This document shows positions 12,516 to 50,950 of a DNA stretch of 64,000 nucleotides, piece after piece; position 1 is the stretch's first letter, and every line of letters starts with the position of its first letter. The notes beneath the pieces were generated by a model. That model was not told where the DNA came from, did not search any database, and saw only the letters and a program-made list of their open reading frames with translations. The DNA comes from a bacterium (lineage in GTDB: Bacteria > SZUA-182 > DTGQ01). The stretch spans positions 1 through 64,000 of the forward strand of contig JBFMGO010000014.1 in NCBI GenBank assembly GCA_040752695.1. The letters run 5' to 3'. The position numbers were made by a program, and so were the translations under genes.

Positions 12516-12545
12516 TTGACAATATCCTTCTTTCCAAATTATAAT
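12516..12545 (+). promoter_or_regulatory. sigma70 promoter for the pilin-like/secretin cluster
   Basis: TTGACA-N18-TATAAT in an AT-rich spacer. Confidence 0.7.
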
Positions 12546-12656: not shown

Positions 12657-13562
12657 GTGAGTCGCAGGAGCCAAGTGGTTTTTATTCTGGTTGGTATTTT
12701 TTGGCAGTTGTCAACAGTTTTTTGCTGGGCAGAGCCAGACCCCGAAATAATTCTCTCCCATGACCTTATCCATTTTCATCTTATCTCCGGGCAAACAGGG
12801 CCTGTAGATGCTGATACATTGGTAAGGATAATTATCCAGTCGAGCGGATCAGGATGGGTCCTCAATTACCAGGCCAATCCGCTGATTGGCTCGCACGGGG
12901 AGATATCGCCTGACAGGATACAGGTAATGACACCTTACACCAGCGGGTTCGAGACCCTTGACCTGCCGAGGTTTGTCGGCAGGGGAGAGGCCACTGGGCC
13001 GGAATCAGATGAGGTGGCCACCATGCAGTTCAGGTACATGGCCAATGGTCAGGAAAAGGCGGGGACTTATGAAGGTAACATCTTCTCATCCGATGGCAGA
13101 GGGCCAACCATACACGTGAGGATGATCATTGAGCCGCCAGGTGCAGAATCCAAGCTGTTTGAGCCTCCGGCTGCAAGGCAATCGGCGGGGTCGAGGATAC
13201 ATATGGTCTTATCACCTCAGGGTATTCGCTTTCCCGTGACCGGAACACCAGGAGAGTATGAGGCAGACAGCCCTGTTCATCTTGCCGTTGAGTCAAAATA
13301 TCCCTTTATCGTAACGACGCGTGCCACCTCGCTTCACAGCCAATATGGGGATATCCCGGCTGATCGGCTTTTTTTGACTCCGGGTGATGGAAATTCCTAT
13401 AGTCTTGAAAAAGATGTGGTGGTGCTTGAGGGCCTATCGAAAATACCTGAAAAGGGTGAAAGAATTTCTGCTGATTTGCATTTTCGGTTAAAGACCACAG
13501 GGAATGACAAGGCAGGTGAATACACAGGGGAGATCGTTTTTACCTGTATGCCGGGAGAATAA
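12657..13562 (+). CDS. Exported protein with two tandem pilin-like Ig domains (candidate minor/tip subunit)
   Basis: Signal peptide; two internally homologous halves ending KAGTYEGNI and KAGEYTGEIVFT. Confidence 0.6.
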   Translation: MSRRSQVVFILVGIFWQLSTVFCWAEPDPEIILSHDLIHFHLISGQTGPVDADTLVRIIIQSSGSGWVLNYQANPLIGSHGEISPDRIQVMTPYTSGFETLDLPRFVGRGEATGPESDEVATMQFRYMANGQEKAGTYEGNIFSSDGRGPTIHVRMIIEPPGAESKLFEPPAARQSAGSRIHMVLSPQGIRFPVTGTPGEYEADSPVHLAVESKYPFIVTTRATSLHSQYGDIPADRLFLTPGDGNSYSLEKDVVVLEGLSKIPEKGERISADLHFRLKTTGNDKAGEYTGEIVFTCMPGE

Positions 13563-13781
13563 GACCAGGGAAAAGGGATAAGAAAGAGAATCGAGAGAAT
13601 AAAAAGAAGATCAAGAGAATAAAAGGAAAATCAAAGGGATAAACGACATAAGCATCTATTGATCCTTCCACAGGAAAACTATAAGGAGGAAGGGGGGGGA
13701 AAAGATCAAGGGATGTCCTTAACTGATACTGTGGGTCAAGAGGAAGAAATAGTTCCCTCGTTGAGGGGAATGGTACTGAGA

Positions 13782-13865
13782 GCAGTTAGCATGGTTATTA
13801 AGGCAGTTACAGCGGTTGTTAAGGCAGTTACAGCGGTTGTTAAGGCAGTTACAACGGTTATTAAG
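13782..13865. repeat. 4 x 21-bp tandem repeat (gcagttacagcggttgttaag)
   Basis: Two identical and two near-identical units directly upstream of the 13895 gene. Confidence 0.9.
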
Positions 13866-13894
13866 CAGGAAAGAATAAATCCGGAGGATTCATT

Positions 13895-14395
13895 ATGAAA
13901 AGGTATGCAATGCTTTTGATAGTTTTAATCGTACTGTTTGGATTTGTCGGAATGGCCGCAGCAGGCCCGGAGGGAGACCCCAATATTCCTGAATTACCTC
14001 CAGCAGGGAATGTTTTAGTATCAAGCAAGGTTCAGGTAACAGCCCAGATAGGGGGGTGGGCTTCGCTCAGTCGGGTTGTCGCACCAAGCAAAATTGGTTT
14101 CGTAGGTAAGCCAAATGAAGAACAATCCAGGTATGACGGCTGGATAGAGGTGCAGTGTAATGTACCCGTGATAATGACTGCGGAAATAACAGCTCCTTTG
14201 ACAAATCCACAGGGTAATCAGATCAAGACCATGGTCAGCCTTGATTATGGTCCATTCGATGTATTGGTATCAGGGCAGACCTGGGGCGGATATGAACAGC
14301 ATAACCTCGGCCTGTACGGAGTTTTAGGAGATCCTGCTCAGGAAGCCGGTGAGTATACAGGAGAAGTTACGGTTACTTTATCAAGGCCGCTCTGA
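13895..14395 (+). CDS. CS1/CFA-I-like fimbrial subunit (candidate major pilin)
   Basis: GGAGG RBS, signal peptide, VQVTAQI donor-strand-like segment, VQCN, PLTN and C-terminal AGEYTGEVTVTLS. Confidence 0.6.
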   Translation: MKRYAMLLIVLIVLFGFVGMAAAGPEGDPNIPELPPAGNVLVSSKVQVTAQIGGWASLSRVVAPSKIGFVGKPNEEQSRYDGWIEVQCNVPVIMTAEITAPLTNPQGNQIKTMVSLDYGPFDVLVSGQTWGGYEQHNLGLYGVLGDPAQEAGEYTGEVTVTLSRPL

Positions 14396-14532
14396 TCCCT
14401 GCAGGTCTTTTGAAAGAAGAAGAGAAAAGGAGCATAATGGCATAAAAAGAGCAGCCGTGATGAAGAATGGAAGATTCGTAAGCAAAAAAGGTTAGTATCC
14501 GCGACAGCGGATAAATGACGACAAGAATGGCA

Positions 14533-14571
14533 TGGCTGAGGGGTGATGGCAACTCCTTCACCCCTCAGCCA
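14533..14571 (+). terminator. Strong stem-loop after the pilin-like gene (terminator or mRNA stabiliser)
   Basis: tggctgaggggtga...tcacccctcagcca, 14-bp stem; no U-tract. Confidence 0.5.
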
Positions 14572-14624
14572 AAGATCCATAGACTATTCTATGGTCCATG
14601 TTCTGAGCCATTGGAGGGTTATTA

Positions 14625-16334
14625 TTGTTTGGCCGTTGTATTCCCGACAGCAGCGGGAAAAAAGATCGTGATCAGCCGGGGGCCCGGCAGGTTTGTCTTG
14701 CTGTTTTGGCCCTTAGCGGTATTTTTACCTTTTCCTGCCTCTTCCCTTCTTTATCCTGGGCTGTTGGCTTCGTGGGTGTGAACCCTTTGCTCATAGATCT
14801 TGAACTTTCAACAGGCAAAAGAGGCGAATTCGAAATGGAAGTATATTCCATCTCAAATGAAGATGTCCCTGTTCATTTTTCCCTCTTTGATGTCATACAG
14901 AAAGAGGATGGAAGTACGGAATTTTCGGATATCGGCAGCAACCGCTATTCATGCACTCCCTGGATAAAACTTGAAAAGAGTGATCTTACCATACCCGCTG
15001 GTGAGAGCGTAATCGTCAAGGGTGAGATCACCGTTCCCCTTGCCCATGCCGGGAGCAGGCTGGCTGCCATTATGGTCGAACCTTGTCGCGGGCAGAAAGA
15101 AGCCGGTATCATTGTAAAATTACGGTATGCAGTTATTCTCAGACTGAAGATAACGGACAGGCCAGCCATGGAAGAGGCAAGGCTTGACAGATTCGGCAAA
15201 AAAAAATTAGCGGATGGTACACCTGCCCTTGAGGCGGTTCTCTTCAACAAGTCCGAGACAGACTATAAGGTTAAGGGAAGTGTCCTCATCCAGGACGGTT
15301 CAGGAAAGATATTCACTGAGCTGAATCTTACTACGGACTCACTCGAGCGAAAGAAAAAAGAGGGAAAGAAAGAAGAAAAAGAAAAAAAGAAAGGCACAGC
15401 GGCCACCACCGGAGGGGAAGAAGATCAAAGGATCTATCCAGGCGCCCGGGTGGCCTTTTGGGCGGGATTGGACAAACCAGTACCTCCGGGCGATTATGTG
15501 GCTATCCTGAACATGCGGTATGGCCAGAGAAGCCTGACGGCCAAAGAAAATATCAGCTTCACTGAAGAGGATATCGCCCCTATAGCCAGGAAGTCTGCAC
15601 AAGGGGTATCCTTCGAGATTAAGCCCTCTTATCTTGAGGTGAAGGGACAACCTGCAGGTATAAGGACAGCGGTTTTTACGATCATCAATCTGGTCGATGA
15701 GCCCCAAAAGGTATCATTATCAATCAAGGATATCGAGTATGATCCCAATGGGCAGGTCCTCGTAAAGGACCCTGGCACTACACCCTATTCTGCAAACGGA
15801 TGGCTTCAGCTTGAGCGGTCTGAATACGAGATAGGGCCGAGGCTTTCACAGAGCGTGTCGATGAGAGTCGAGGTTCCTGCGTCAATCGTCCAGGTCGGGA
15901 ACAGGTATGGCCAGGTAGTGGTTGAAAAGTCTTACCAGGGGGGATTCGAGACGGCCCATGGGGAAAAAGGCCGCATGGAAGTGGGAGTGATTCTTCCCGG
16001 TAAGGTTGAACCCGCTTTTGAGGTTAAGTGTCTCAAACGGCTGGAAAAGGATAAAGGATTCGGGGAATTGGTGGCAGAGGTCAGGAATAATGGCCCGGTC
16101 CATGTGATTCCAAAGGGAAGAGTTATTATCAAGGACGTTTATGATAATAAGGTTGACGAGGTGGAACTTAATCTGATAGTCAGAGCCCTGCTGCCCTACT
16201 CAGAGGGGAGGATGAGAGGGGAGATAAAGAAAAAGCTCATCCCCGGTGAATATATTGCCATCGCCGAGATAGATTACGGCGGAAAGGAAAAGGCAACCTC
16301 GAAGATAACCTTCAAGAAGCAACCTCGCTCATGA
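14625..16334 (+). CDS. Exported tandem PapD-N/DUF916-like chaperone-type protein
   Basis: TTG start with GGAGG; signal peptide; two homologous modules (VNPLLIDL..YSCTPWI..PGDY and IKPSYLEV..YSANGWL..PGEY), all-beta pattern. Confidence 0.55.
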   Translation: MFGRCIPDSSGKKDRDQPGARQVCLAVLALSGIFTFSCLFPSLSWAVGFVGVNPLLIDLELSTGKRGEFEMEVYSISNEDVPVHFSLFDVIQKEDGSTEFSDIGSNRYSCTPWIKLEKSDLTIPAGESVIVKGEITVPLAHAGSRLAAIMVEPCRGQKEAGIIVKLRYAVILRLKITDRPAMEEARLDRFGKKKLADGTPALEAVLFNKSETDYKVKGSVLIQDGSGKIFTELNLTTDSLERKKKEGKKEEKEKKKGTAATTGGEEDQRIYPGARVAFWAGLDKPVPPGDYVAILNMRYGQRSLTAKENISFTEEDIAPIARKSAQGVSFEIKPSYLEVKGQPAGIRTAVFTIINLVDEPQKVSLSIKDIEYDPNGQVLVKDPGTTPYSANGWLQLERSEYEIGPRLSQSVSMRVEVPASIVQVGNRYGQVVVEKSYQGGFETAHGEKGRMEVGVILPGKVEPAFEVKCLKRLEKDKGFGELVAEVRNNGPVHVIPKGRVIIKDVYDNKVDEVELNLIVRALLPYSEGRMRGEIKKKLIPGEYIAIAEIDYGGKEKATSKITFKKQPRS

Positions 16335-17986
16335 CCAGAATCTTACGATACACCCCTTTCTTAGCTTTTTTGTTCTCTCTTTTCATGTTCCTTTCAGCAG
16401 CAGGCTGCGTCCATGGTGATTATGCACTTTTAGAAGAAGGCAAGCGGCTTTACGAGAGGCAGGAATATGAAAAAGCAGTCAGTAAGTTTCTGGAAATAAA
16501 GCATAATTACCCACATAGTAACGTAGCCGAACTGGCAGATGATTATGCAAAAAGGGGCGAAGATGCCCTGAGCAGAAAGAAAGAAACCCGGAAAGAGCTT
16601 GTACCAAAAGAGCCCATACCAAAAGAGCATATACAAAAAGAGCGCATACCAAAAGTGCTCAGGCCGGAGGAAAAATCGTCAAAGCCAGGTGGGCAGAGGA
16701 ACAAAGAGTTAATTGCTCATGGTGAATCGGCGCCAGCCCATTCGAACAAGGGAGACGATGCTGTCAGGAAAAAGGAAGATGCTCGTAAAGAAGCCGCACT
16801 GCAAAAGAAAATACCAGAGCCAAAAGGACCAGAGCCTGAAACAAAGGGTTCAGAGCCTGCAAAAGCAAGCAAAGAGCTGGGGAAAAAGCCGGAAAAGCTC
16901 CTCACGAATGTGTTCTATGATACCGATATACGGGAGATAATCAGAAACCTTTCTGCCGAAACAGGTGAAAATTTAATTACCGATGATACCATTCAAGGCA
17001 TTATTTCACTAAAATACGAAAATCAGCCTCTTGAAAAGGTATTAAAGATGATACTCGCCGCAGGGGGATATACTTTCAAAAAGATGGATGATTATTACCT
17101 CATCGGCTCGGCTGATCCCCGGAGCGCACTGTTCAATTTCCTGAGCAGGACTGTCTCTGTGAAACCAAGATTTTTAAAGGCCAAGGAGATTTTAAAACTC
17201 ATTTCCCCTTCATTTGCCCCATCGATCCAGCTCAATGAAGAGCGCAACCTGCTTACTATCACCTCATCCCCCGAAAAGATAGAAAGGATACTTGAGGACA
17301 TCAGGATAATCGATAAAAAGCCACGGCAGGTGACACTTGAGGCAATCATTATAGACCTTTCATCAGATGCAAGGAAGAGTCTGGGTATAAACTGGACAGG
17401 GCAATCGGGCAAGTTTCCCGGATCTATGGAGGACCTCGATATAACATTCGGCTATACCGATACGCAGGTCTTAACTCAGCAGATTACGGCCAAGATTCGT
17501 GCGCTGGTTGAGAATGGTTTAGCCTCAGTGAAAGCTACGCCCCGGGTAACTACCATGGATGGGGAGGACGCTGAAATCAACCTGAACCTTGAACAATATA
17601 TATCCATAACTTCAGGTCCGGTCTCTTATCCCTATAGCTCAGTCCAGACAATCAAAGCAGGGATCAGTCTCCATATCGTTCCCTTCATTTCAGAAGATAA
17701 TGAAATTCTGGTGAAAATAAAACCGGCAGAAGTAAGCGATTTTGTCGGAACAGGGCCGGGAGACCTTCCTCTAATCAATAAACGTTCGGTTACTACTTCA
17801 GTGATGGTTAAAGATACCGAAACCATAGTTATAGGAGGTCTCCTCAGAAAGCGGGATGTCAACCGGGTTTCAAAAGTTCCCATTCTCGGCTATATACCAG
17901 TTATAAATATATTCTTTAGCAAGAGAGAAAAGGTAACCGAAGATTCAGAGGTGCTTATATTGATAACGCCTCGTATACTCCAATAA
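16331..17986 (+). CDS. Lipoprotein secretin (type II/III secretion, PilQ-like) with an N-terminal TPR-like domain
   Basis: Lipobox AAGC; N0 domain (DTDIREII), N3 domain, QVTLEA, TPRVTTMDGEDA and IVIGGL...KVPILGYIP...LILITPRI core. Confidence 0.88.
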   Translation: MTRILRYTPFLAFLFSLFMFLSAAGCVHGDYALLEEGKRLYERQEYEKAVSKFLEIKHNYPHSNVAELADDYAKRGEDALSRKKETRKELVPKEPIPKEHIQKERIPKVLRPEEKSSKPGGQRNKELIAHGESAPAHSNKGDDAVRKKEDARKEAALQKKIPEPKGPEPETKGSEPAKASKELGKKPEKLLTNVFYDTDIREIIRNLSAETGENLITDDTIQGIISLKYENQPLEKVLKMILAAGGYTFKKMDDYYLIGSADPRSALFNFLSRTVSVKPRFLKAKEILKLISPSFAPSIQLNEERNLLTITSSPEKIERILEDIRIIDKKPRQVTLEAIIIDLSSDARKSLGINWTGQSGKFPGSMEDLDITFGYTDTQVLTQQITAKIRALVENGLASVKATPRVTTMDGEDAEINLNLEQYISITSGPVSYPYSSVQTIKAGISLHIVPFISEDNEILVKIKPAEVSDFVGTGPGDLPLINKRSVTTSVMVKDTETIVIGGLLRKRDVNRVSKVPILGYIPVINIFFSKREKVTEDSEVLILITPRILQ

Positions 17987-18293: not shown

Positions 18294-21278
18294 ATGGATC
18301 TGAGTCGAAGAGGTTTTCTTAAAGCATCAGGTGCAGCCGCGGCGTCTGCAGCCATAGGCTCTCTGGGATTCGACCTTTCAGGTGTGTCGGCGTATACTCA
18401 TCCTCTCAAGATCAGCTATGCCAAGGAAACTACCACTATCTGCCCCTTCTGTTCATGCGGGTGCAGCATTATTGTGCATACTGTGGACGGCAAGGTCATC
18501 AACACCGAGGGGGACCCCGACTCGCCCATCAATGAGGGGGCGCTGTGCGCCAAGGGATCGGCCCTCTATCAGGAGGCACACAGCGAGTATCGGCTGCGCA
18601 AAGTCCGCTACCGTGCTCCTGGAAGCAGCACCTGGGAGGAAAAGGACTGGGACTGGGCGCTGGACAGAATCAGCCGGAATGTCAAAAATACCAGGGACAA
18701 TACCTTTGTCACAAAGACCAGCGATGGCCTGATCGTCAACCGGACCGAAGGGATTGCCAATCTTGGGGGAGCAGCGATCAATAACGAAGAATGCTATATT
18801 CTGGCCAAGCTTGCCAGAAGCTTAGGATTCGTTAATCTCGATCATCAGGCCAGGGTCTGACACTCCTCTACAGTAGCGGCTCTGGCAGAGTCGTTCGGTA
18901 GAGGTGCAATGACCAATCACTGGATCGATCTGAAAAACAGTGACTGTATTATCGTCATGGGCAGCAATGCAGCGGAAAATCATCCCATGTCGTTCCGATG
19001 GGCTCTTCGGGCCAGGGATGAGCGGTCGGCCAGGATCATCAGCGTGGACCCGCGCTTCACCCGTACCTCGTCTCTGGCCGATATCTATGCGCCGCTGCGC
19101 TCCGGCACGGATATTGCCTTTATTGGCGGGATGATTAACTATTGCCTCCAGAATCAGCTCTACAATCAGGAATATGTAGTGGAATATACTAATGCCGGCC
19201 ATCTCATATCCGAAGACTTCTCCTTCTCCGAGGGGCTTTTCTCCGGCTATGATCAAACCGCCAGAAAGTATGATAACGCCAGTTGGGCCTACCAGCTCGA
19301 TGAGAATGGGGTTCCCCTTGAGGACAAGACCCTTCAGAATCCGCATTGCGTATTTCAACTGCTCAAAAACCACTTCAGCCGCTATGATGTTGACACGGTG
19401 TGCAAGATTACCGGAACTCCCAGGGAGAAATTCCTGGAAGTGGCCAGGACCTTCTGTGCAACCGGAGATCCCCGCAAAGCCGGAACCATCATGTATGCCA
19501 TGGGCTGGACCCAGCACACTACCGGCACGCAGATCATCCGGGCTTTTGCCATCCTGCAACTTCTTTTGGGCAATATTGGCATTGCCGGTGGCGGAGTCAA
19601 TGCCCTGCGGGGTGAGCCGAATGTGCAGGGATCAACCGATTATGCGCTTCTCTTCCACCTTTTACCCGGCTATCTGAAGGTTCCGGTTGATAAGGACACC
19701 TCCCTTCAGGCATATCTTGACAGGTGCACACCGGTGTCAAAAGATCCCAAAAGCGTCAACTACTGGAAAAACTATCCCAAGTTCATGATCAGCCTGCTCA
19801 AGGCCTGGTATGGGGAGAATGCCACAGCGGAAAATGAGTTCTGTTTTCATCTACTGCCAAAGGCCTCAGGCAATTACTCGCATATGTCCATCTTCCAGAG
19901 CATGTATCAGGGGAAGATCAAGGGACTTTTCTGCTGGGGTCAGAACCCGGCTGTGAGCGGTCCCAATGCACTGATGGAGCAAAAAGCCCTTGAGAAGTTA
20001 GACTGGCTGGTCTGCACGGACATCTTCGAGACGGAAACTTCCATCTTCTGGAAACGCCCGGGTGCAAACCCTGGCGATATCAAAACCGAGGTCTTTCTTC
20101 TTCCGGCTGCATCCTCATCCGAGAAAGAGGGAAGCATCAGCAACAGCGGCCGCTGGGCCCAGTGGCGGTACACATGTGAGCAGCCCCAGGGAGAAGCAAG
20201 ATCAGACCTTTGGATCATGAATTCCCTCATGCTGCGGCTGAAAAGGCTCTATGCTCAGGACCCTGGTCCGTTCCCTGACCCGATCACCAGGCTTAGCTGG
20301 AATCTCGGCTCAGCCGACAAGCCAAGCGCTGCTGTCGTGGCCAGAGAGATCAACGGGTACGATCTTTCTTCAGGCAGGCTGCTCGATAATTTTACTCAAT
20401 GCCAGGACAATGGAACAACATCTTGCGGTAACTGGCTCTATTCGGGCAGTTACACGGAAGCGGGTAACCTGATGGCTCGACGGGGAAAGGATGATCCCAC
20501 CGGTATGGGCCTTTATCCCAACTGGTCCTGGTGCTGGCCACTCAACCGCAGAATTATCTATAACCGTGCCTCCTGCGATACTCAAGGCAGGCCCTGGGAT
20601 CCTGACCGTGCGGTCATCTGGTGGAATGAGGCCATGCAGCAGTGGGAGGGAGATGTGCCGGATTATGGCAAGAAAGTTCCGCCAAAGAATAATGCCGGGG
20701 CCTTTATCATGAAGACCGAGGGGCATGCCCGGCTCTTTGGCATGGACCTGGCGGATGGACCGTTCCCGGAGCACTATGAGCCGTATGAAAGCCCTGTGGA
20801 TAATATTCTCTCATCCCAGCAGATAAACCCTTGTGTCTTCCTTGGCTATAATACGGACCTTGACAAGAAGGGCAATCAGCGTGAGTTTCCGATTGTGGCT
20901 ACCACCTACCGGATCACCGAGCATTGGCAGAGCGGGATCGAAACCCGCTGGCAGCCGTGGCTCTGTGAGCTGATGCCGGAGATGTTCGTCGAATTGTCCA
21001 GGGAACTGGCCAAAGAGAAAGGGATCAGTAATGGGGATCTTTGCACCGTCGCATCGGCCAGAGGCTCGATCAGGGCCGTAGCTGTCGTTACCGCCCGGTT
21101 CAGACCCTTTCTGGTCGATAACCGCGTGGTCCACCAGATCGGGCTCCCCTGGTGCTATGGCTATGCAGGACTGGCTACCGGAGATCCGGCCAATATCCTG
21201 ACGCCGAATATTGGAGATCCAAACACCAGGATACCCGAATACAAGGCATTCCTGTGTGCTATCAGGAAGGGGGTGTGA
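18294..21278 (+). CDS. fdnG: Formate dehydrogenase-N alpha subunit, selenocysteine-containing
   Basis: Tat signal SRRGFLK; CPFCSCGC; in-frame TGA 18858-18860 in HQARV-U-HSSTVAALAESFGRGAMTN joins the two ORF-track pieces. Confidence 0.95.
18861..18906 (+). promoter_or_regulatory. Bacterial SECIS element
   Basis: Hairpin just after the UGA: lower stem cctctac/gtagagg, upper stem gcggctct/agagtcgt, G-containing loop. Confidence 0.8.
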
Positions 21279-40295: not shown

Positions 40296-40829
40296 ATGGA
40301 CCGAGGGCTCATTCAGGCAATTCCCATTTTATTGTTGGCCGTTATACTGCTCATAGCTGCCATAAGCGACTTTCGTACCCGGAAGATTCCCAACCGGCTT
40401 ACCTTTCCTACGGCAGCGGTGGGAATAATTTACCATACCTGCGTAAGCGGATGGAAGGGGCTCCTTTTCAGCACAGCGGGCGTAGTCGCAGGGCTTGCGC
40501 TGCTCATGGTTTTTTATCTCATGGGGGGAATGGGCGCAGGTGATGTCAAACTCATGGGAGCTGTCGGCGGTCTTTTGGGGCCAGAAGGAGTATTGGCAGC
40601 CTTCGTGGGCACTGCCCTGATCGGAGGTATCTATGCGGTTGGGCTTCTGGCTGTACACGGAGATCTCCCTGACATGGTCAGGCGGTACGGAATAATGCTG
40701 AAGACGTTTTTCTTCACCCATCGGATGGTTTACATTCCTCCGGAAAACAGGGAATCACGGCCAGTTTTGTGCTATGGATTGGCGATCGCAATTGGTACGT
40801 TACTCTCGGTTTTCATAAGGGTTATTTAA
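40296..40829 (+). CDS. cpaA: Prepilin peptidase A24 (TadV/CpaA)
   Basis: SDFRTRKIPN, GGMGAGDVKL and YGLAIAIG. Confidence 0.92.
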   Translation: MDRGLIQAIPILLLAVILLIAAISDFRTRKIPNRLTFPTAAVGIIYHTCVSGWKGLLFSTAGVVAGLALLMVFYLMGGMGAGDVKLMGAVGGLLGPEGVLAAFVGTALIGGIYAVGLLAVHGDLPDMVRRYGIMLKTFFFTHRMVYIPPENRESRPVLCYGLAIAIGTLLSVFIRVI

Positions 40830-41190
40830 AGATTATCTCATGGGAAAACAGGCATGGGAGAACATGACTGAAACAAGAGGGGGGCAGGAGGATTCATGAG
40901 CAGGGGGGTGATATCGAAGAGTTAATGTCATATGCGTTAAGCCAGGATGGGCTTGACCTGAGGGGCTTTAGAGCTTAGCTTAAGGTATATGAGATTGACT
41001 TGGTGCAAAAGGGGCTTAATACCCATAAGACAGGTGACAGGTATACCTTTCAAGGGGTATGGCACTGTGCAGGGAGTAAACTCAAGACGGTGAGCAGAAG
41101 AAGGGCCGGGCTGTGATTAAGAAGACAAGGTGTACTGCCAAGAAGGGGAATAACGATGAGAAGGAATGAGAGCGAAGAAGGAGATGCATA

Positions 41191-42195
41191 ATGGAAAAGA
41201 AGAAATCGATCATCATGGTTGGCCTGGCCATGGTCATATCGTTCATTATTACGATTCTGGTCATGAAAAGTATAAAAAAGGACATACCTCCCCCACCCCA
41301 AGCGAAATTAGTCACGCAGCCAATAGCGGTAGCGGCTTTCGATTTACCGTGGGGCACCTCCCTTTCCAGAGAGCAGATCAGGATGGTGCCTTTTCTCCAA
41401 AAAAGTCTGCCGATGGGATCTTTTTCCGATTCCAATTCCCCGGGAAAACTGGTCGGGCGGACCACTATCTATCCGATCAATGCCGGGGAGCCGATATTGG
41501 AGTCAAAACTGGCCTCGAACGACCCTAAAAACAACGGGGTGGCCGCAATCGTTAATATTAAAAAACGCGCTATGGCGGTGAGGGTTGATAAGGTTATTGG
41601 CGTAGCCGGCTTTATTTATCCCGGTCATCGGGTAGACATTTTAGTAACCTTAAAAGAGAAGGATCAGGAAAAGCGTACCGGCCCTATAACCAAGACAGTG
41701 CTTGAAAACATATTAGTTCTGGCTGTAGGTACAAAAATGGCTGTAGATACAGAACCGGGACTGGTAAGCAAGGGTCTGGAAGAGACGGGGTTGAAAGAAA
41801 AAGATAAAAAAACTGTCGCGGTAGATGTGATCACCCTTGAAGTAACACCGGAAGAGGGGGAAAAACTGGCCCTGGCCGCTAATGAAGGCAGGATACAACT
41901 GGCGTTGAGAAGTTCCAACGACATCAATGCCGTTGAAACGGCTGGAATGACCATACCGGTCCTTTTGAGCTCCTGTACGTCTCCTTCACCTCCGCCGCCT
42001 CCTAAAGTCTGCACCGTGGGCCGTGGCGTCAAGCGCCAAAAAAACCGGAGCACTAAAAATCCGCCCAAAGCTGCATCCAAACCTGCACCTTTCACCGTCG
42101 AATTAGTCAAAGGAGCCCAAAAGAGTGAAGTGAAATTTGATGAGAATGATGTGGAACTTGATAATAGTGAGGTGAAACGTGAACGGAGGATCTAA
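41191..42195 (+). CDS. cpaB: Flp pilus assembly protein CpaB/RcpC
   Basis: TM anchor, SAF domain, RAMAVRV...GVAGFI.PG.RVD and TLEVTPEE. Confidence 0.92.
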   Translation: MEKKKSIIMVGLAMVISFIITILVMKSIKKDIPPPPQAKLVTQPIAVAAFDLPWGTSLSREQIRMVPFLQKSLPMGSFSDSNSPGKLVGRTTIYPINAGEPILESKLASNDPKNNGVAAIVNIKKRAMAVRVDKVIGVAGFIYPGHRVDILVTLKEKDQEKRTGPITKTVLENILVLAVGTKMAVDTEPGLVSKGLEETGLKEKDKKTVAVDVITLEVTPEEGEKLALAANEGRIQLALRSSNDINAVETAGMTIPVLLSSCTSPSPPPPPKVCTVGRGVKRQKNRSTKNPPKAASKPAPFTVELVKGAQKSEVKFDENDVELDNSEVKRERRI

Positions 42196-42199
42196 GTGC

Positions 42200-43720
42200 A
42201 TGGTAAGACAGCATGGAGTCAGGCGATACAGGAGAGGGGTCTTTTTTTTCATCATCCTGCACCTTTGCCTTTTACTTCCCTCATCATGCCGGGCGGCTCA
42301 GGCGGAGAAGGCGGGCATTATTGCAACCACACCGCAGACATTGAGCCTGGCGGTTGGGAAATCGATTGTCATTGAGAGTCCGGTGCCAGTGGAACGGGTA
42401 ACCCTTGCCGATCCTGCTGTGGCGGATGTACTGATACTGTCTCCTCAGCAAATTTACCTGAACGGGAAGGTCCCCGGTCTCACCAACATCACCCTATGGA
42501 GCGACAGGGTGAGAATCTCCGATGTTTTCGATCTCGAAGTCGTACCGGATATCACCCGGCTGAAGGAAAAACTCCATGAAATATTTCCCCAGGAAGAAAA
42601 TATCCGGATCACGGCCACCCACGACAGCCTCAGCCTGTACGGCACCGTTTCCAGTTCGGCCAGCCTCTCCGAAATACTGGCTCTGGTTCAGTCATACACG
42701 CCCAAAGGCAAAGGGGGAGAGTCGATGGTTAATAATTTTCTCGAGGTGGAAGGTGTGCACCAGGTGATGATCGAGGTTCAAATATCGGAGATGTCCCGGA
42801 GCCTGATCAAGGAATTGGGTATTAACTTCAGTGGGGTGAGTGCAGATGGAACAAAATTCGGGGTGAGTCTTCTCGACAGATTGTCAGGCATTGACAAGCT
42901 TTCGGCAGGTGAGAGCTTTACAACAAAGGAATTGGGTTTATCATCCAACCTGAATGCGATCTTCCGGTTTTACGGAAATGATGTTCCCTGGACAGTCCTG
43001 ATGAACGCATTGAAGGACGAGGGACTGGTAAAGGTCCTGGCTGAACCGACATTAATCACCTTAAGTGGCAAGCCTGCCGATTTTCTCGCCGGTGGAGAAT
43101 TCCCTATTCCGGTCCCTCAGGAGGGAGGAATTACCATAGAATACAAGAAGTTTGGCGTAGGGCTTCAATTCACTCCCATCGTACTGAGCAGCGGAAAGAT
43201 CAACATGGAGGTGTCGCCGGAGGTGTCCGAACTTGATCCATCGAATTCCCTGTCCTGGAGCGGTTTTAAAATACCGGGCCTGAGCACGAGGCGCGTTTCG
43301 ACGGTGATCGAGCTGGGTGACGGGCAGAGTTTTGCCGTTGCCGGTCTTTTGAAGAATAATGTCGGAGAATCTGTCCAGAAATTTCCTCTTCTTGGTGATA
43401 TCCCTATCTTGGGTTCACTGTTCAGGAGCAGCTCTTTTCAAAAAAACGAGACCGAACTGATCATCATTGTTACTCCTCACCTGGTAAAACCGCTCGATAT
43501 GGCCAAACAGACCTTACCTACAGGCGAATACAGAGAACCGGATGACCTGGAGTTCTACTTTCAGGGAAAACTGGAAGGGAGAGGAGAACCGTTTCTTTCG
43601 TCTCCTGCTCCTTTAGATCTGCCATCGGCCCTGACGCTTCAAGGCAAGAAGGGAGTGCTTTTCCATGAGGTGCCTGCCGGAGATGGACTGGAAGGAGATT
43701 TTGGCCACATTGTGCCTTAA
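42200..43720 (+). CDS. cpaC: Tad secretin RcpA/CpaC
   Basis: Pilus-formation N domain, LAEPTL..LSG..A.FLAGGEFP and GDIPILGSLFRS. Confidence 0.92.
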   Translation: MVRQHGVRRYRRGVFFFIILHLCLLLPSSCRAAQAEKAGIIATTPQTLSLAVGKSIVIESPVPVERVTLADPAVADVLILSPQQIYLNGKVPGLTNITLWSDRVRISDVFDLEVVPDITRLKEKLHEIFPQEENIRITATHDSLSLYGTVSSSASLSEILALVQSYTPKGKGGESMVNNFLEVEGVHQVMIEVQISEMSRSLIKELGINFSGVSADGTKFGVSLLDRLSGIDKLSAGESFTTKELGLSSNLNAIFRFYGNDVPWTVLMNALKDEGLVKVLAEPTLITLSGKPADFLAGGEFPIPVPQEGGITIEYKKFGVGLQFTPIVLSSGKINMEVSPEVSELDPSNSLSWSGFKIPGLSTRRVSTVIELGDGQSFAVAGLLKNNVGESVQKFPLLGDIPILGSLFRSSSFQKNETELIIIVTPHLVKPLDMAKQTLPTGEYREPDDLEFYFQGKLEGRGEPFLSSPAPLDLPSALTLQGKKGVLFHEVPAGDGLEGDFGHIVP

Positions 43721-43842
43721 CATGTTAGCAAAAGCCTTAACTATAGTAGCAAAAAAGGGGGCCTGACCCCCTCGAATGCTTAGCCGATGCTTATGAGGGT
43801 AACCTCAAAGAGACTGTCAAGACGGCAGGGGAGGATTATGAT

Positions 43843-44124
43843 ATGAAGAAAAAATGCCTTGTTTTCATAACGCTGTTTGTTGGGTTCATGGTTTTGGCCG
43901 GTTGCGGTGGTGGTCTCAGTCGGCTGGAGGCTGACTACGGGACCTCGTATGCTCTTGCCAAGCGGAACCAGACCCTCAACCCGGATGCGGGGGAAAAACC
44001 GGCGCCGGCTGCTTGCAGGCTCGATGGTCAGGCAGCCCAAAAGACGGTCGAGAAGTATCAAAAGGGCTTTGGATGCCAGACCGAAGCATCCTCACATGCT
44101 GTCGGCATCAGTATCGGCAAATAG
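43843..44124 (+). CDS. Small Tad-associated lipoprotein
   Basis: Lipobox LAGC, Q.LNPDA and DG.AA...YQK; position after the secretin. Confidence 0.7.
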   Translation: MKKKCLVFITLFVGFMVLAGCGGGLSRLEADYGTSYALAKRNQTLNPDAGEKPAPAACRLDGQAAQKTVEKYQKGFGCQTEASSHAVGISIGK

Positions 44125-44154
44125 CAGCCAGTTTGGAAGGAGGTGTTGGCAATT

Positions 44155-44580
44155 ATGAGAAAACCAGAATTGGCTGATGAAAAAGGTGTAGCGGTAGTAG
44201 AATTTGCTCTTGTTCTTCCGCTGTTGCTTGCCCTTTTTTTCGGCATGGTCGAATTCGGTGTGATCCTGTATGATCAGCATTTAATTACCAATGCGACCAG
44301 GGAGGGCGCGCGCGCTGGGATTGTGGCTCAAGATCCCAGAGTAAATGATGATGCTATAAAGAAAATTGTTAAAGATAATATGTCGTACCTTATAAGTCTC
44401 GGTAAAGGGGCCGTAGCATCACAAGACCCAAATGTTATTCACCCTACGAATCCAAATTTTGGAGACGACCTTACAGTTAATGTGTCTTATCAATACCATT
44501 TTCTGGTCGCTTCCGCTCTTATTCCAGGGCTCGGCGATTCGATTGAGTTGCGTGCCCAAACGGTGATGAAATATGAATAA
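44155..44580 (+). CDS. tadE: TadE-like pseudopilin
   Basis: KG/VAVVEFALVLP and NATREGAR. Confidence 0.88.
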   Translation: MRKPELADEKGVAVVEFALVLPLLLALFFGMVEFGVILYDQHLITNATREGARAGIVAQDPRVNDDAIKKIVKDNMSYLISLGKGAVASQDPNVIHPTNPNFGDDLTVNVSYQYHFLVASALIPGLGDSIELRAQTVMKYE

Positions 44581-45784
44581 CACAGAAAATAATGACAATA
44601 AGAAAAAATGGACATGGCTCATTTCAGGCATAAGGGGTCAGAGGGGGGCGGTAGCCATTTTGGTAGCGTCGTTTCTTGTATGTTTGACTGGTGTAGCGGC
44701 ATTAGTTATTGATATGGCGAACCGCCATGTCAATAAGAACACCCTTCAAAATACTTCTGATGCGGCAGCATTGGCCAGTACCAGGGTGTTAGGAGAAAAG
44801 TACAAATCGTTGCAGGAGGGGGACGAGTACGTTTGTGATCAAGGAGCCATTGATGAGATTATCAGCGCCTGCATCGATGTAGCAGTAAAGAACAGGCCTG
44901 CTGGAGAAAAGGAAATTATCACTATCACTGATAGCGATGTATGGATCGGAAACTGGGATAAGGTAAATAATAAATTGGATCCTAATTATCCAATCAGGGA
45001 CAGTCGTGTTTTTCTGCTTATCAATCCGGATGGAGTAAAGGTAATAGCCCATAGAGATGGAGAAAACCAGGTACCCACCTTTTTTGCCAGGATATTGGGT
45101 ATAGACGCTATGAACGTTGCTGCAGATGCCACGGCTGCTCTGCTTCCTGAAATACCCGGCGGCACCGTACCTCCCGGCGTACCTCCCGGTGGACCTTCTG
45201 GAACATCCATCGGGCGCATTCCCATCACGGTTGGGGTTAGCGAGCGTATTTTTAAAGAACATGATATAGATGGTGAAACGGTTAGAATTCATCCCCTTGG
45301 GAGTGAATTAGGCATAGATTTTAATGAATATTTCGGGTGGCATACCTATGACCGGGAAGCGAATACTGATAACTTGAAGGATATCCTGAGAGAATTTCAA
45401 GAAGGGAAACTCGAATGCCCGGATGCGGTAATAGGCAGAACAGTATTCAATTTCTTTTATCCTGGTGTAGAGCGTGCTGGGCAGGACATGGCGGATGCTT
45501 TTGGCCCCATACTGGAGCTCGATTCGGATACGCAAAGAAATAATTATGGTGATCTTGACGAAGACCCTAATACCTGGACGATACCCATAGTGGTTTATGA
45601 GGATAGCAGCACTTCCGTGCCTGAACATCCGGAAGGTGAGAAACTTATCGTAGGGTCCTGCAGGCTGACTGTAACAATTGTTGGAGAGGGGGGCGGAACT
45701 GAAACGATAATAGAGGGCATCATTGACGATGAGCCGGATGATGTGCCGATACAGGCATCGGCTATCCCTGTACTCGTGCAGTAA
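44573..45784 (+). CDS. tadG: TadG-like pilus protein
   Basis: RG/AVAIL, ALVID, LQN.SDAAALA and TFFARILG. Confidence 0.8.
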   Translation: MNNTENNDNKKKWTWLISGIRGQRGAVAILVASFLVCLTGVAALVIDMANRHVNKNTLQNTSDAAALASTRVLGEKYKSLQEGDEYVCDQGAIDEIISACIDVAVKNRPAGEKEIITITDSDVWIGNWDKVNNKLDPNYPIRDSRVFLLINPDGVKVIAHRDGENQVPTFFARILGIDAMNVAADATAALLPEIPGGTVPPGVPPGGPSGTSIGRIPITVGVSERIFKEHDIDGETVRIHPLGSELGIDFNEYFGWHTYDREANTDNLKDILREFQEGKLECPDAVIGRTVFNFFYPGVERAGQDMADAFGPILELDSDTQRNNYGDLDEDPNTWTIPIVVYEDSSTSVPEHPEGEKLIVGSCRLTVTIVGEGGGTETIIEGIIDDEPDDVPIQASAIPVLVQ

Positions 45785-46221
45785 AAAGACATTTCCATGA
45801 GGTGAGGGGGGCAAGAGCGAGAAAACTGGCAGGGGAATTCCCATGCAGTGTCCTCAAGACAGATCGCATTCAATCCGCGGCTGGATTCAGCACGTAACAT
45901 GCAGGGGGTGGGACTTATTCCCCACCAACGATGGTAGAGGGCAGGGCAAAAGAGCCCCACCCCCTGCATGTTGAGTATCGGTGATACCTTGCCCCATGAT
46001 CAAGGGGATGTTTTTATTTCCCCCCTTTGTAAAGGGGGACAGGGGGGATTTGGAGAGATTTTCGAGGAATGCCCCCCATTCAATATCGGCCGGGGTAATT
46101 GCCGGCCAGGGCACTAAACTGACTGCATCGCCCTTGCGGCTATACCTGTATATTGTTTTGGGAGCAGGAGTGGCAAACAGGATATGATCGAACCTTAAAA
46201 CTGGGAGTTGAAAAACACATT

Positions 46222-47442
46222 ATGCCTGAAAACAGTATTTCAGTGAGATTCAGAATCAAGACGCAGAAGATAAGAGAGGAATTGGAAGAGGCCATCTCCT
46301 CGATAGAGGGGTTTGTTCTCCAGCGGTCTGAGAGCTCACAGCCCTGCGACCTTCTGATCATGGAAATGGGAGATGATCCGGCAGAGGAGTTTCGGCTGGT
46401 AAATGATTTCCAAACCCTGGGAATAGCGGGCGAGGTTTTTCTGACCTCGGATGTCACGGACTCTGAGACCCTGCTCAAGGCTTTAAGAACCGGCGTCAGG
46501 GAGTTTTTCCCCCAGCCTCTTCAGAGGGAAGAGGTGAAAACCGCCCTTATACACTTTAAAGAGCGGTTCGCGGAACAAAAGGGACAGGGAGGAGCAGGCA
46601 AGTCCTCATCGAAGAAGGGTAAGATAATAGCTGTCCTGGGCAGCAAGGGCGGGACGGGAACGACGACGGTAGCGGTAAATCTGGCTGCCTGCCTGGCCGG
46701 ACCGGGTGGGGGGCAGTCAATCGCTCTTTTGGACATTGGTTTTCCTTTCGGGGATGTATCGCTCTATTTAGGCATAAAACCCCTTTTTGACTGGACAGAG
46801 GCTGTCAGGAACATTTCCCGGCTGGATAATACCTATCTGACGAGTATTCTTACGAAACACTCTTCAGGGATTTACGTATTGCCATCTCCAGCCAGGCTGT
46901 CCGGGGAGCAGGAAATTGCCTCGGAGGACATGAAAGCTCTTCTTGAGGTCATGCGCACCATGTTTGATTTTATTATCGTAGACTGCGCACAGGCTCTCGA
47001 TGGAGCGGGCAGAATGGTTTTGAAGGAGTCGGATACGGTTCTTATGGTTACTCTTCTCAGCCTTCCCTGCCTTGTTAATGTCAAAAGAATCCTGTCCACT
47101 TTCCGGGACTTCGGTTATCCTTCTGAAAAGGACATACAAATACTGGCGAACCGGGTCCATAAAAACTCCCCCGTTTCTCTGAAGGAGGCGGAAGAGAGTG
47201 TCAAGAAAAAATTCCTGTGGGTATTTCCGAACAACTATCAACTGACCATGAGAGCCATCAATCAGGGAAAATCCCTTTGTGTTCTGGATCATGGTGCTGA
47301 AATATCCAAAAAGTTCAGAGAGTTGTCTTCTGCTTTTTCTGGCAGGAGCGAGAATGATGCAAAGGAGGGTTTTGCCGGTTCCAGGGTGGGGAAATTGCTG
47401 ACAAAAATTATCGGCGAAAGCGCCATCTTGTCAAGTCATTAA
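46222..47442 (+). CDS. cpaE: CpaE/TadZ (receiver-like plus MinD/ParA ATPase)
   Basis: ALRTGVREF and the deviant Walker A KGGTGTTT. Confidence 0.9.
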   Translation: MPENSISVRFRIKTQKIREELEEAISSIEGFVLQRSESSQPCDLLIMEMGDDPAEEFRLVNDFQTLGIAGEVFLTSDVTDSETLLKALRTGVREFFPQPLQREEVKTALIHFKERFAEQKGQGGAGKSSSKKGKIIAVLGSKGGTGTTTVAVNLAACLAGPGGGQSIALLDIGFPFGDVSLYLGIKPLFDWTEAVRNISRLDNTYLTSILTKHSSGIYVLPSPARLSGEQEIASEDMKALLEVMRTMFDFIIVDCAQALDGAGRMVLKESDTVLMVTLLSLPCLVNVKRILSTFRDFGYPSEKDIQILANRVHKNSPVSLKEAEESVKKKFLWVFPNNYQLTMRAINQGKSLCVLDHGAEISKKFRELSSAFSGRSENDAKEGFAGSRVGKLLTKIIGESAILSSH

Positions 47443-47500
47443 TACTGAGCGAATCAAGTCATGAATAGTTATCAAAACATCAGAAGATTAAGGAGAATAC

Positions 47501-48823
47501 ATGGCCCTCGTGGGTGAAAGACCGTTTACATTCTCAAGAACGAATGAATACATCGAGATGAAAGCAAGAGTTCATGATCGCCTTCTGGAGGTTTTGGACC
47601 TGTCGCTGATCGATTCTCTTGACCAGGTTTCATTGAGACGGCAAATCCGGGAACTGACTGAGGAAATAGTATCGGAAGATCAGTTCAGCATGCCCCTTAA
47701 TTCCGAAGAGCGGGAGCGATTTTACCGCGAAGTTCAGGATGAAGTGGTCGGGCTTGGGCCCATAGAGCCTTTCATGCGAGATCCTACGGTTTCGGATATC
47801 ATGGTGAATGGGTATAAACAGGTATATGTGGAGACGCGGGGGAAATTACATCGTACTGATGTCCGCTTCAGGGATGATGCCCACTTGAGGAAAGTCATTG
47901 ACAGAATTGTATCCGCCGTCGGGCGCAGGATTGACGAGTTCTGCCCTATGGTGGATGCCAGGCTGCCGGATGGCTCGCGAGTCAATGCCATCATTCCTCC
48001 TGTGGCTGTCGATGGACCTTCGCTGTCGATTAGGCGTTTTGCCGTTGATCCACTCGAATTGGATGATTTGATCGAATTAAAAACCCTGATTCCGGAAATC
48101 GGAGAACTTCTGCAGGGGATCGTCAAGGCGAGGCTGAATGTTTTGATTTCCGGAGGAACCGGCAGCGGAAAAACCACGCTTCTGAATGTGCTTTCCCGGT
48201 TTATTCCCGCTGACGAGAGGATCGTCACGGTCGAGGATGCTGCAGAGCTGCAACTGAAACAGGAACATGTAGTCCGTCTGGAAACGAGGCCTTCCAATGT
48301 CGAGGGCAAGGGTGAGATCAGCACCAGGGATCTGGTGAGGAACACTCTGAGAATGCGGCCTGAGCGGATTATCGTCGGTGAGGTCAGGGGATCGGAGGTT
48401 CTGGACATGCTCCAGGCAATGAACACGGGGCATGATGGATCACTGACGACTATCCATGCCAACTCACCCCGCGATGCTCTCATCCGGCTGGAGACACTGG
48501 TGGCCATGTCCGGGCTCACCATCCCCCATGAGGCAGTCAGGAGATATATCTCATCTGCCCTGAATGTCATCATTCAGTGTGCACGTCTTGTCGATGGAAG
48601 CAGGAAAGTGATGAGTCTCCAGGAGGTTACGGGAATGGAAGGAAACATAATCACCATGCAGGAAATCGTTTGCTTTGAACAAACCGGCATGGATGACAAC
48701 GGCAGAGTAAAAGGGAGATTCAGAATGTCAGGTGTCCTGCCGCGGTTTATAGACAGATTTAAGGTGCGGGGAATCCCCTTTTCGTATGAAACCTTCGGCA
48801 CCCCAAGAGTGTTGGAGATTTAG
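47501..48823 (+). CDS. cpaF: Tad assembly ATPase CpaF/TadA
   Basis: [24 protein letters not shown] and AMNTGHDGS. Confidence 0.95.
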
Positions 48824-48836
48824 GGAGAGAAAGAGT

Positions 48837-49814
48837 ATGCTCCATATCATCGCTTCTATTGCCCTCTTTGCCACTTTGGTATTCTTTTTTATCGAGATCT
48901 TCCTGATTCAAAGAGCCATACGGAATCCGGAAGCGAAGAGACTTAAAAAGCAGCTTGAAGAGATCACCGGTGAAGCCCCAAGACGTCCCTCCGTTACTAC
49001 CATCAGGCTGAAGCAGCAAAGGAGTGATATTCCCTGGCTCAACAGGGTGCTGTCAAGTGCCTGGGCACCCCTTATACACTGGTTTGATCAGATTCTGCTG
49101 CAATCCAATACCCAGCATCCCCTGGGAGTTTTTGTCCTGTTCAGTCTTCTTCTTGGTCTGAGCGGATTTTGTATTGTCTTCAGGCTGACCAGGAGCTACC
49201 CTCTCGCATTTCCCGCGGGAGGGCTGGCGAGTACCTTGCCCTTTTTCTACCTTTCCATAAAAAGGATGCGCAGAATGCGCAAGTTTGAACAGCAGTTGCC
49301 CGATGCCCTCGATTTGATTGCACGGGCATTAAAAGCAGGACAGGCTTTCCCCGGCGGGCTCCAGATGGTGGCCCAGGAGTTTGACGATCCCATAGGCCCT
49401 GAATTCGAAAAAACCTTTGTTCAGATCAACCTCGGTGCCGGTTATCAGGAGGCATTAAAAAGTCTCACCGATCGCGTCGATTGTCCTGACCTCAAATTTT
49501 TTGCCATTTCCGTTATTATTCAGAGACAAACCGGTGGGAATCTAGCTGAAATTTTGGAAAACATCAGCCGTCTCATCAGGGAAAGATTCAAGCTGCGCGG
49601 TCATGTTCGAGCCCTGGCTGCTGAAGGGAAGCTGTCTGCCTGTGTTCTGATAGCACTCCCTTTTTTAATCTTTATTACGCTTTCTTGCATCAATCCGGAT
49701 TATGTCAATGTTTTAGTAACGAATGATATTGGGAAGATGCTGATTTTCGGCTCGCTGGTCATGATGATGCTGGGAGTTTTCATTATGAAAAAAATTGCTA
49801 CCATAAAGGTTTAG
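48837..49814 (+). CDS. tadB: TadB (T2SSF domain)
   Basis: FEQQLPDALD...LKAG and QRQTGGNLAE. Confidence 0.92.
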   Translation: MLHIIASIALFATLVFFFIEIFLIQRAIRNPEAKRLKKQLEEITGEAPRRPSVTTIRLKQQRSDIPWLNRVLSSAWAPLIHWFDQILLQSNTQHPLGVFVLFSLLLGLSGFCIVFRLTRSYPLAFPAGGLASTLPFFYLSIKRMRRMRKFEQQLPDALDLIARALKAGQAFPGGLQMVAQEFDDPIGPEFEKTFVQINLGAGYQEALKSLTDRVDCPDLKFFAISVIIQRQTGGNLAEILENISRLIRERFKLRGHVRALAAEGKLSACVLIALPFLIFITLSCINPDYVNVLVTNDIGKMLIFGSLVMMMLGVFIMKKIATIKV

Positions 49815-49833
49815 ACAGGCGGAGATCGATACC

Positions 49834-50784: not shown

Positions 50785-50950
50785 TTACAGAAAGAGCATT
50801 AACCCTTGAATAACATTTTTATTCACACCGGAGGTTTTTGAATATGAAGAATAGAGGCAGGCAGCCTGTTACCAATGACAATATCAACGCACTAACAGAC
50901 CGGCATCCGATCCTGCAGAGAGGATTGCTCAGGTCGAAACAAATACGCCT

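Follow-up and report, generated by a model that had tools for sequence, protein, structure and literature searches.

A conserved gene cassette with pilin-like subunits, a tandem chaperone and a secretin: a candidate donor-strand pilus locus in which no usher was found

We analyzed a window of 64,000 nucleotides (positions 1 to 64,000 of contig JBFMGO010000014.1 in assembly GCA_040752695.1, from a bacterium of the GTDB lineage SZUA-182), in which four genes, called A to D here, encode two pilin-like proteins, a chaperone-like protein and a secretin. The original prediction had proposed that these genes make a pilus whose subunits leave the cell through the secretin instead of an usher. As it had described, the four genes are co-oriented open reading frames (ORFs) behind a consensus promoter match; they lie on one strand, flanked by a dGTPase gene in divergent orientation and an operon for formate dehydrogenase. 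We put the probability that the cassette makes a donor-strand pilus leaving via its dedicated secretin D, without an usher and without a motor encoded in the locus, at roughly 0.55. The host genome (6.05 Mb, 96.6% complete) contains kdsB and seven secretin genes, from which we conclude that the host has two membranes.

The four genes and their products

Gene A (12657..13562, all features being on the + strand unless said otherwise) encodes 301 amino acids (aa) with a signal peptide, read by eye, and two pilin-like domains that are homologous to each other (hhalign 98.7%, E 1.4e-16). Domain 1 (12732..13136) contains the strand AGTYEGNI, followed by a conserved turn and an extra strand (SDGRG-PTIHVRMII) in which G136, Y138, S144 and P150 are invariant in 9 rows (A and eight homologues from related loci); judging from the sequence, this extra strand would complete the fold of domain 1 from within. 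Domain 2 (13185..13559) terminates at the strand AGEYTGEI and matches the B family (hhalign 63%, E 7e-5), aligning only from mature residue 26 of B, so that it lacks most of a donor strand. The B family has no direct match to domain 1 (hhalign 0.3%), and the link between them runs via domain 2. Since domain 2 is short of a donor strand and domain 1 seems to be self-completed, A is likely to be a tip or initiator subunit without a donor strand; the two-domain pilin-like protein that had been proposed is thus retained, although not as a second major pilin. In Atlas, A has SCPU and WxL clusters among its neighbors, with low TM, and the Atlas model of A is itself weak (pTM 0.47).

Gene B (13895..14395) encodes the likely major pilin, of 166 aa with a signal peptide at residues 1-23 (by eye). 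When B was aligned with 24 paralogues from related loci, the family was found to share the signal peptide, an alternating strand IxVxAxV (consensus IxVxAxVxxYA) and a C-terminal strand AGxYxxxIxxT. In B the alternating strand is the predicted N-terminal donor strand (14012..14050; VLVSSKVQVTAQI, mature residues 17-29), and the C-terminal F strand (14351..14392) is predicted to pair with the chaperone. As had been noticed, three pilin-like domains end in AGxYxGxI/V (AGTYEGNI and AGEYTGEI in A, AGEYTGEV in B); a scan for this C-terminal motif among the 27,095 ORFs of the genome returned A and B as sole matches. Searches of A and B against Pfam (E up to 1) and NCBIfam assigned no family to them. 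The AF2 model of mature B (33 alignment rows) has a pLDDT of 87.9 with strands spanning residues 33-140, and residues 17-29 are unpaired in the monomer despite a pLDDT of 89 over residues 21-30. Seven Foldseek matches of this model have E below 0.001, and all are CfaB or PapG pilin domains (top, CfaB with E 2e-4). According to VIA, the PapG pilin domain (Z 8.6, root-mean-square deviation (rmsd) 3.0, 105 aligned) is followed by CsuE (Z 8.5, rmsd 2.6, 97 aligned), scores that barely exceed those of unrelated immunoglobulin (Ig) domains (Z 7.9). The nearest named neighbors of B in Atlas are SCPU and DUF4402, with WxL only in distant rows.

Gene C (14625..16334) encodes 569 aa with a signal peptide (by eye) and a tandem chaperone-like region of four Ig domains. 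It arose by internal duplication (25% identity, E 6e-10; E 3.7e-44 by profile comparison), and its AF2 model (108 rows, pLDDT 91) has four Ig domains, a last beta strand at residues 557-565 and no C-terminal membrane helix. The tandem, chaperone-like character that had been predicted therefore stands, but C is not made of chaperone N-domains only: it consists of two complete two-domain units. C falls below the cut-off for PF06030 (DUF916/WxLIP; 22.2 bits vs 27.3, E 1.5e-4), and its homologue P0014 has both PF11797 and PF06030. The best structural match by VIA is WxLIP 9i1y of Enterococcus faecium (Z 17.7, rmsd 5.8, 245 aligned, residues 48-327), followed by CEP192 (Z 13.0, rmsd 16.6), and residues 328-565 match YadV (Z 12.8) and CfaA (Z 12.5). 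In Foldseek with the whole model, long Ig-repeat proteins dominate (rmsd above 15), and these were set aside for the compact WxLIP matches; a sequence search of the PDB with C gave nothing useful.

Unit 1 of C (14760..15569) is the predicted pilin-binding unit and includes a predicted donor (G1-like) strand, GIIVKLRYAVI (15105..15137), with the conserved R167; the alignment column of this residue holds Arg in 88 of 108 rows. Unit 2 (15600..16331) has the same fold with a short and variable donor segment. Arg is found at the equivalent column in 14/18 unit-1 rows and 23/40 single-unit chaperones and in only 3/18 unit-2 rows, and because the conserved Arg is mostly lost, unit 2 has probably changed its role; possibly it docks on the secretin.

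We then modeled C with two copies of B, together with three controls, a job unlike the calibration set. The C-B pair reached an ipSAE of 0.62 (0.63, 0.62 and 0.58 in individual runs; best of three controls 0.00), passing a score mark that is met by 116 of 157 solved pairs and 2 of 215 mismatched pairs; this pass may stem from likeness to solved chaperone-pilin complexes. The runs share at least 40% of contacts, with partner pLDDT of 66-72. Residues 161-171 and 48-56 of C touch residues 130-143 of B, and since the contacts ascend in register (164:135, 168:139, 169:140), the chaperone strand is modeled parallel to strand F of B, which is the geometry reported for complementation by the chaperone in the Elr pilus (10.64898/2026.10.17.759780). 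Only residues 333-334 of unit 2 belong to the confident interface. Unit 1 of C is thus predicted to complement B as in donor-strand complementation, and B is modeled with a free N-terminal strand rather than as a complete Ig fold.

Gene D (16331..17986), whose start overlaps the end of C (ATGA) as had been reported, encodes a secretin of 551 aa (PF00263, 133 bits vs a cut-off of 27.5, E 8e-39). Lipoprotein-type Cys26 is followed by a short helical region, a linker rich in Lys, Glu and Pro, and domains N0 and N3 (both matches below cut-off), and the protein ends immediately past the secretin domain. D stays below all NCBIfam cut-offs. A lipobox-like Cys is found in the close homologues L016, L022, L023 and L036 and not in L043 and L082-L086 (L and G numbers are labels of homologous loci and genomes in our survey). 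The linker of D is encoded by a 15-nt repeat (4.7 copies, 16592-16661); cassette secretins are 385-722 aa among relatives, and the length of the linker varies widely.

Co-occurrence of tandem chaperones and secretins

With a profile of 108 tandem chaperones, we were able to identify chaperone matches in 13 of 20 genomes of the host phylum, 25 of 351 genomes of the phylum of L022 (labelled Thermodesulfovibrionales), and 70 of 401 genomes in a broad sample. A single-protein scan of genome contigs with one sequence found no relative, an alignment-based scan found 4 loci, and plasmid sequences searched with C gave no match; a search of RNA data listed no holder either, which does not bear on expression. 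Thermotoga maritima, a named control, matches PF06030 and has two secretins, TM1117 and TM0088 (PMC5637354). We scored 102 loci, leaving out three single-unit matches from the phylum of L022 and a small number of weak matches from the broad sample; as loci and genomes are related, the counts below are not independent. Among full-length tandem chaperones, 17 of 20 have a secretin on the same strand within 2.1 kb, so the proposed combination of a tandem chaperone with a secretin and without an usher recurs, also in distantly related bacteria; of the remaining three loci, L088 is cut by a contig end and two are in G005. In all 76 single-unit loci, the 6 kb around the chaperone are free of secretins (the closest, L108, is at 6.4 kb on the opposite strand, and L100 is adjoined by a secretin-like stretch that scores below threshold), and no secretin was found with six further long chaperone-like ORFs. 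Instead, 62 of the 76 loci have, within 2.5 kb of the chaperone, a large ORF on the same strand (750 aa or longer). We scanned 35 of the large neighbors of single-unit chaperones and found 4 ushers (PF00577), 26 SdrD_B/CarboxypepD_reg proteins and 5 unrelated or unmatched proteins. The slot downstream of the chaperone is therefore held by an usher or another large partner in single-unit loci and by a secretin in tandem loci, and the simplest reading is a replacement in this slot.

The phylum of G425, which is distant from that of the host, has the chaperone in 59 of 91 genomes, and 31 of its 33 cassette-secretin matches are within 6 kb of a chaperone match (counted from coordinates), 27 secretin matches being directly downstream of the chaperone on the same strand. 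The cassette is present in many closed genomes. Close loci have one to three B paralogues and a tip-like A, and the secretin tracks with both chaperone and pilins.

In the 20 genomes of the host phylum, D has only three other close orthologues (58-70% identity), each adjacent to a chaperone, and the next-best matches (about 30% identity) are in MSHA-like clusters. The six other secretins of the host comprise one in the Tad locus of the window (42179-43720), as the original prediction had stated, and five on other contigs, in type IV pilus (T4P), type II secretion system (T2SS) or MSHA-like clusters (cluster types were assigned by reading their ORFs); as all six sit in clusters of their own, we rejected D as the missing secretin of another system. 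We built two secretin trees, both without the broken L020 secretin and the second also without 16 near-duplicate rows. The first separates 17 cassette secretins from 32 others (split support 100/99), and the second, which adds secretins from the same distant genomes and from four phages, separates 12 from 38 (98/96). Several branches are long, and the trees are read without a root. Cassette secretins thus form one side of a supported branch, with T2SS, T4P, Tad and phage pIV secretins on the other. D shares 26% identity with Pf3 ORF430 over 98% of the core, and its compact N0-N3 layout is like that of pIV; a phage pIV origin is unsupported, as the four phage secretins lie outside the cassette branch.

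No usher (PF00577, profile only) was found in the host genome (96.6% complete) or in the 40 other genomes that carry the cassette, so that this profile gave no sign of a cognate usher elsewhere. We note that PF00577 is insensitive for the large partners here, as most of them escape the profile. A profile built from five large partners gave only short accessory-domain matches in the host genome, and 41 individual partners gave nothing beyond C-terminal domains of 67-199 residues. Divergent large partners were sought in the host and five relatives, and a fragment was found in G005 only. For SdrD-type partners as ushers, only a weak porin match (E 0.23) was obtained. As had also been claimed, the four genes include no usher, type IV prepilin or assembly ATPase; Pfam shows no platform protein among them either, and the 17 cassettes contain no homologue of PilB, GspE or TadA and no prepilin motif.

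Several loci deviate from the common arrangement. A fifth gene of about 190-230 aa lies between the C and D homologues in L016 (8692-9270), L017 (7489-8079), L023 (9569-10252) and L063 (4812-5372); it was not found in the host genome (best E 0.03) or in L022, and it resembles B only weakly (hhalign 1.4%). In L082 (4461-6254), L083 (2785-4584) and L084 (4685-6484), the cassette secretin is followed on its 3' side by a paralogous second secretin-like gene, whose product has about 600 aa, matches the profile of cassette secretins with E 1e-57 to 1e-59 and carries a barrel-like extension at its C-terminus. At this position, L085 and L043 have shorter barrel-like genes (386 and 299 aa, respectively). 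Other variants (G768:C16, G752:C1 and G823:C1) have an opposite-strand secretin 2.5 kb from the chaperone, or two tandem secretins. In G005 (L018, L019 and L056), the two tandem-chaperone loci include a three-domain A. The A, C and D homologues of L020 (1024-8292, G018) are broken by stops or frameshifts, reflecting either decay or assembly error. L109 (5407-10327), in the closed genome G439 of 0.8 Mb, has two single-unit chaperones in alternation with pilin-like genes. The C-terminal tails of these chaperones are hydrophobic, and neither a secretin nor a large partner on the same strand lies within 2.5 kb, so that the locus resembles a membrane-anchored Elr-type set. Genes of LuxR-type regulators (assigned by reading) are directly 5' of the cassette in L022 (5077-5718), L023 (3123-3731) and L042 (2426-4317); these loci are labelled Nitrospirota, plus one metagenome locus.

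A candidate chaperone-secretin pilus

The cassette is real and conserved, and it does not belong to the chaperone-usher, WxL or type IV filament families. By prediction, its chaperone and pilins function as they do in chaperone-usher and WxL systems. The closest known system is the WxL/Elr pilus of Enterococcus faecalis, in which ElrE is a WxLIP chaperone (DUF916/DUF3324; 10.64898/2026.10.17.759780). The likeness to it lies in the best structural match of C, in the parallel strand placed on the last strand of the pilin, and in the lack of an usher. However, ElrE is a single membrane-anchored unit, whereas C is doubled and has no membrane helix in its model; Elr pilins carry WxL domains, whereas A and B have no hit to WxL (PF13731); and the Elr fiber is anchored by sortase, whereas A, B and C have no LPxTG-plus-helix tail. 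The Elr system is also monoderm, unlike the present host with its kdsB and seven secretins, one of them in the unit itself. The same source places the system in Bacillota only, and its main text uses the word secretin 0 times (10.64898/2026.10.17.759780).

With the alternate (CFA/I, CS1) and archaic (Csu, CupE) chaperone-usher pili, the cassette shares a B fold like CfaB, CsuA/B, CsuE and PapG pilin domains, a unit 2 fold like CfaA and YadV, and a single unit containing a tip-like two-domain subunit, a major pilin, a chaperone and a pore gene; it differs in having a secretin as the pore gene, a tandem chaperone and no usher that we could find. The sister single-unit loci (e.g. L066, L073, L028 and L021) share the chaperone family by profile, the small pilins and the gene slot, but have one chaperone unit and a partner of 750-1400 aa instead of the secretin. 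D has the secretin domain, N0 and N3 in common with the secretins of T2SS, T4P, Tad, the type III secretion system and phage pIV, but the cassette has no ATPase, platform or prepilin of type IV filament systems, and it differs from filamentous phage export in its flanking genes and in the position of D outside the pIV secretins. A search of the literature, with subscription papers largely outside it, found no description of a chaperone-pilin-secretin system.

How the parts would work together, from polymerization and export through D to the source of the energy and the task of unit 2, we infer from these comparisons. A, B and C would reach the periplasm by Sec, and there unit 1 of C is predicted to set one of its strands alongside the final strand of each pilin, in parallel orientation. 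As it has no donor strand, A would start the tip, and B subunits would be added by exchange of their N-terminal donor strands, displacing C. The growing linear fiber may thread the ring of D, driven by the energy of strand exchange with no ATPase, and unit 2, its conserved Arg lost, may dock on the N-domains of the secretin in place of the periplasmic domains of an usher. A precedent for exchange without an usher is ElrD, which is reported to have polymerized in E. coli with ElrE alone (10.64898/2026.10.17.759780). We also consider it somewhat more probable than the opposite that the cassette represents a separate route for surface fibers in two-membrane bacteria, in which a donor-strand pilus primed by a doubled chaperone drives itself through secretins of a dedicated and ancient clade, with neither usher nor ATPase; this route would be found in at least three phyla and be common in one.

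Several observations weigh against this reading. A secretin gate normally opens to a filament that a motor pushes, and a motor could be borrowed here, as a PilC/GspF-type gene (PF00482) is found elsewhere in all 40 carriers; in L084 a PilC gene and the secretin are about 5.6 kb apart, and in L062 the chaperone has an ExeA-like ATPase close by. The two tandem chaperones of G005 come with pilins and have no adjacent secretin. This genome has no close orthologue of D (the best match has 32% identity and is in an MSHA-like cluster), and it carries on another contig the lone C-terminal fragment of a large SdrD-type gene. The weaker tandem chaperones L094 and L095 have neither secretin nor usher. 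Because of the further outer-membrane-like gene 3' of the secretin in L043 and L082-L086, the D homologue may not be the sole pore there. The fold scores of B are modest (Z 8.6; TM about 0.46-0.56), and only one of the two B copies was confidently placed, so that pilin-pilin exchange is not seen in the complex output. Finally, the loci are kin to each other, and a quick-mode tree of chaperone units (L094 and L095 left out) did not recover the units as single clades, or a single origin of the duplication.

We considered three other explanations for the cassette. D could be a swap-in secretin on a distant T2SS or T4P inner-membrane machine that pushes chaperone-delivered subunits or short fibers through it. 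The six other secretin systems of the host, PF00482 in 40 of 40 carriers and the retention of N0 by D (the part that binds GspC or PilP in other systems) would fit this, but 13 of 14 control genomes have PF00482 as well, so that finding it in the carriers is no more than the background would give; the cassettes themselves have no motor or prepilin genes, and other motors own secretins from which those of the cassettes branch apart. We regard this explanation as unlikely. A missed divergent usher or another barrel could also export the fiber, leaving D with a secondary task, for example the release of chaperone or of misfolded subunits, as the low sensitivity of PF00577 for large partners, the barrel-like genes 3' of the secretin in L043 and L082-L086, and G005 without a cassette secretin would allow; we give this very little weight, since the partner searches of the host returned only short accessory-domain matches and D fills the slot held by ushers in single-unit loci.

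The cassette may also make no long pilus at all, C folding A and B, and D releasing monomers or short oligomers to form a matrix, a coat or a stub that plugs the secretin. That the alternating N-terminal strand is conserved in the B family and unpaired in the model, that chaperone pairing is predicted to be as in pilus systems, and that close loci have up to three B paralogues with a tip-like A all speak for a fiber instead, and we find this explanation rather improbable, even with one small pilin and no separate large adhesin in the locus, a second B copy left unplaced in the complex model, and larger (230-270 aa) and divergent subunits at distant loci.

Donor-strand pili of two-membrane bacteria are regarded as needing an usher, both as pore and as catalyst, and secretins are regarded as passive gates that depend on a motor-driven filament or a phage. 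If the chaperone-secretin pilus is real, a chaperone-pilin module joined to a secretin breaks both rules, and folding energy alone can open a secretin gate. It would take an empty place next to two known routes, that of the usher and that of the recently described Elr pilus, by which Gram-positive bacteria do without one. It would also account for a group of 'extra' secretins that at present go under the names PilQ or GspD.

Promoter, intergenic elements and neighboring genes

The candidate promoter is a sigma-70-type match (12516..12545, TTGACA-18-TATAAT, 12/12) about 110 bases 5' of A, and a second 12/12 match faces the opposite direction (12286-12259). A relaxed promoter scan gave 13 sites vs 9.5±3.1 in shuffles, so only these two sites stand out. 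The gap between B and C contains a strong RNA hairpin (14533..14571; -44.2 kcal/mol over 14500-14600, z -5.3), and none of 200 shuffles folded with as low an energy. When we folded 15 other gaps that precede chaperone genes, the best 60-nt hairpins had -18 to -36 kcal/mol (no shuffle control). The B-C hairpin would favor expression of pilin over that of the downstream genes.

The gap between A and B is filled by tandem repeats with units of 20 and 21 nt (13578-13643 and 13793-13865; 3.5 copies, 94%), and several relatives have a further pilin gene at this position. An ORF of 79 aa (13659-13898) that overlies the 21-nt repeat was taken as spurious. Downstream of the cassette, the gene for the alpha subunit of formate dehydrogenase-N (18294-21278) has an in-frame TGA that is read through as selenocysteine. 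The Tad/Flp pilus cluster of the window extends from 40296 to 51910 and includes, besides its own secretin, a TadA-like ATPase.

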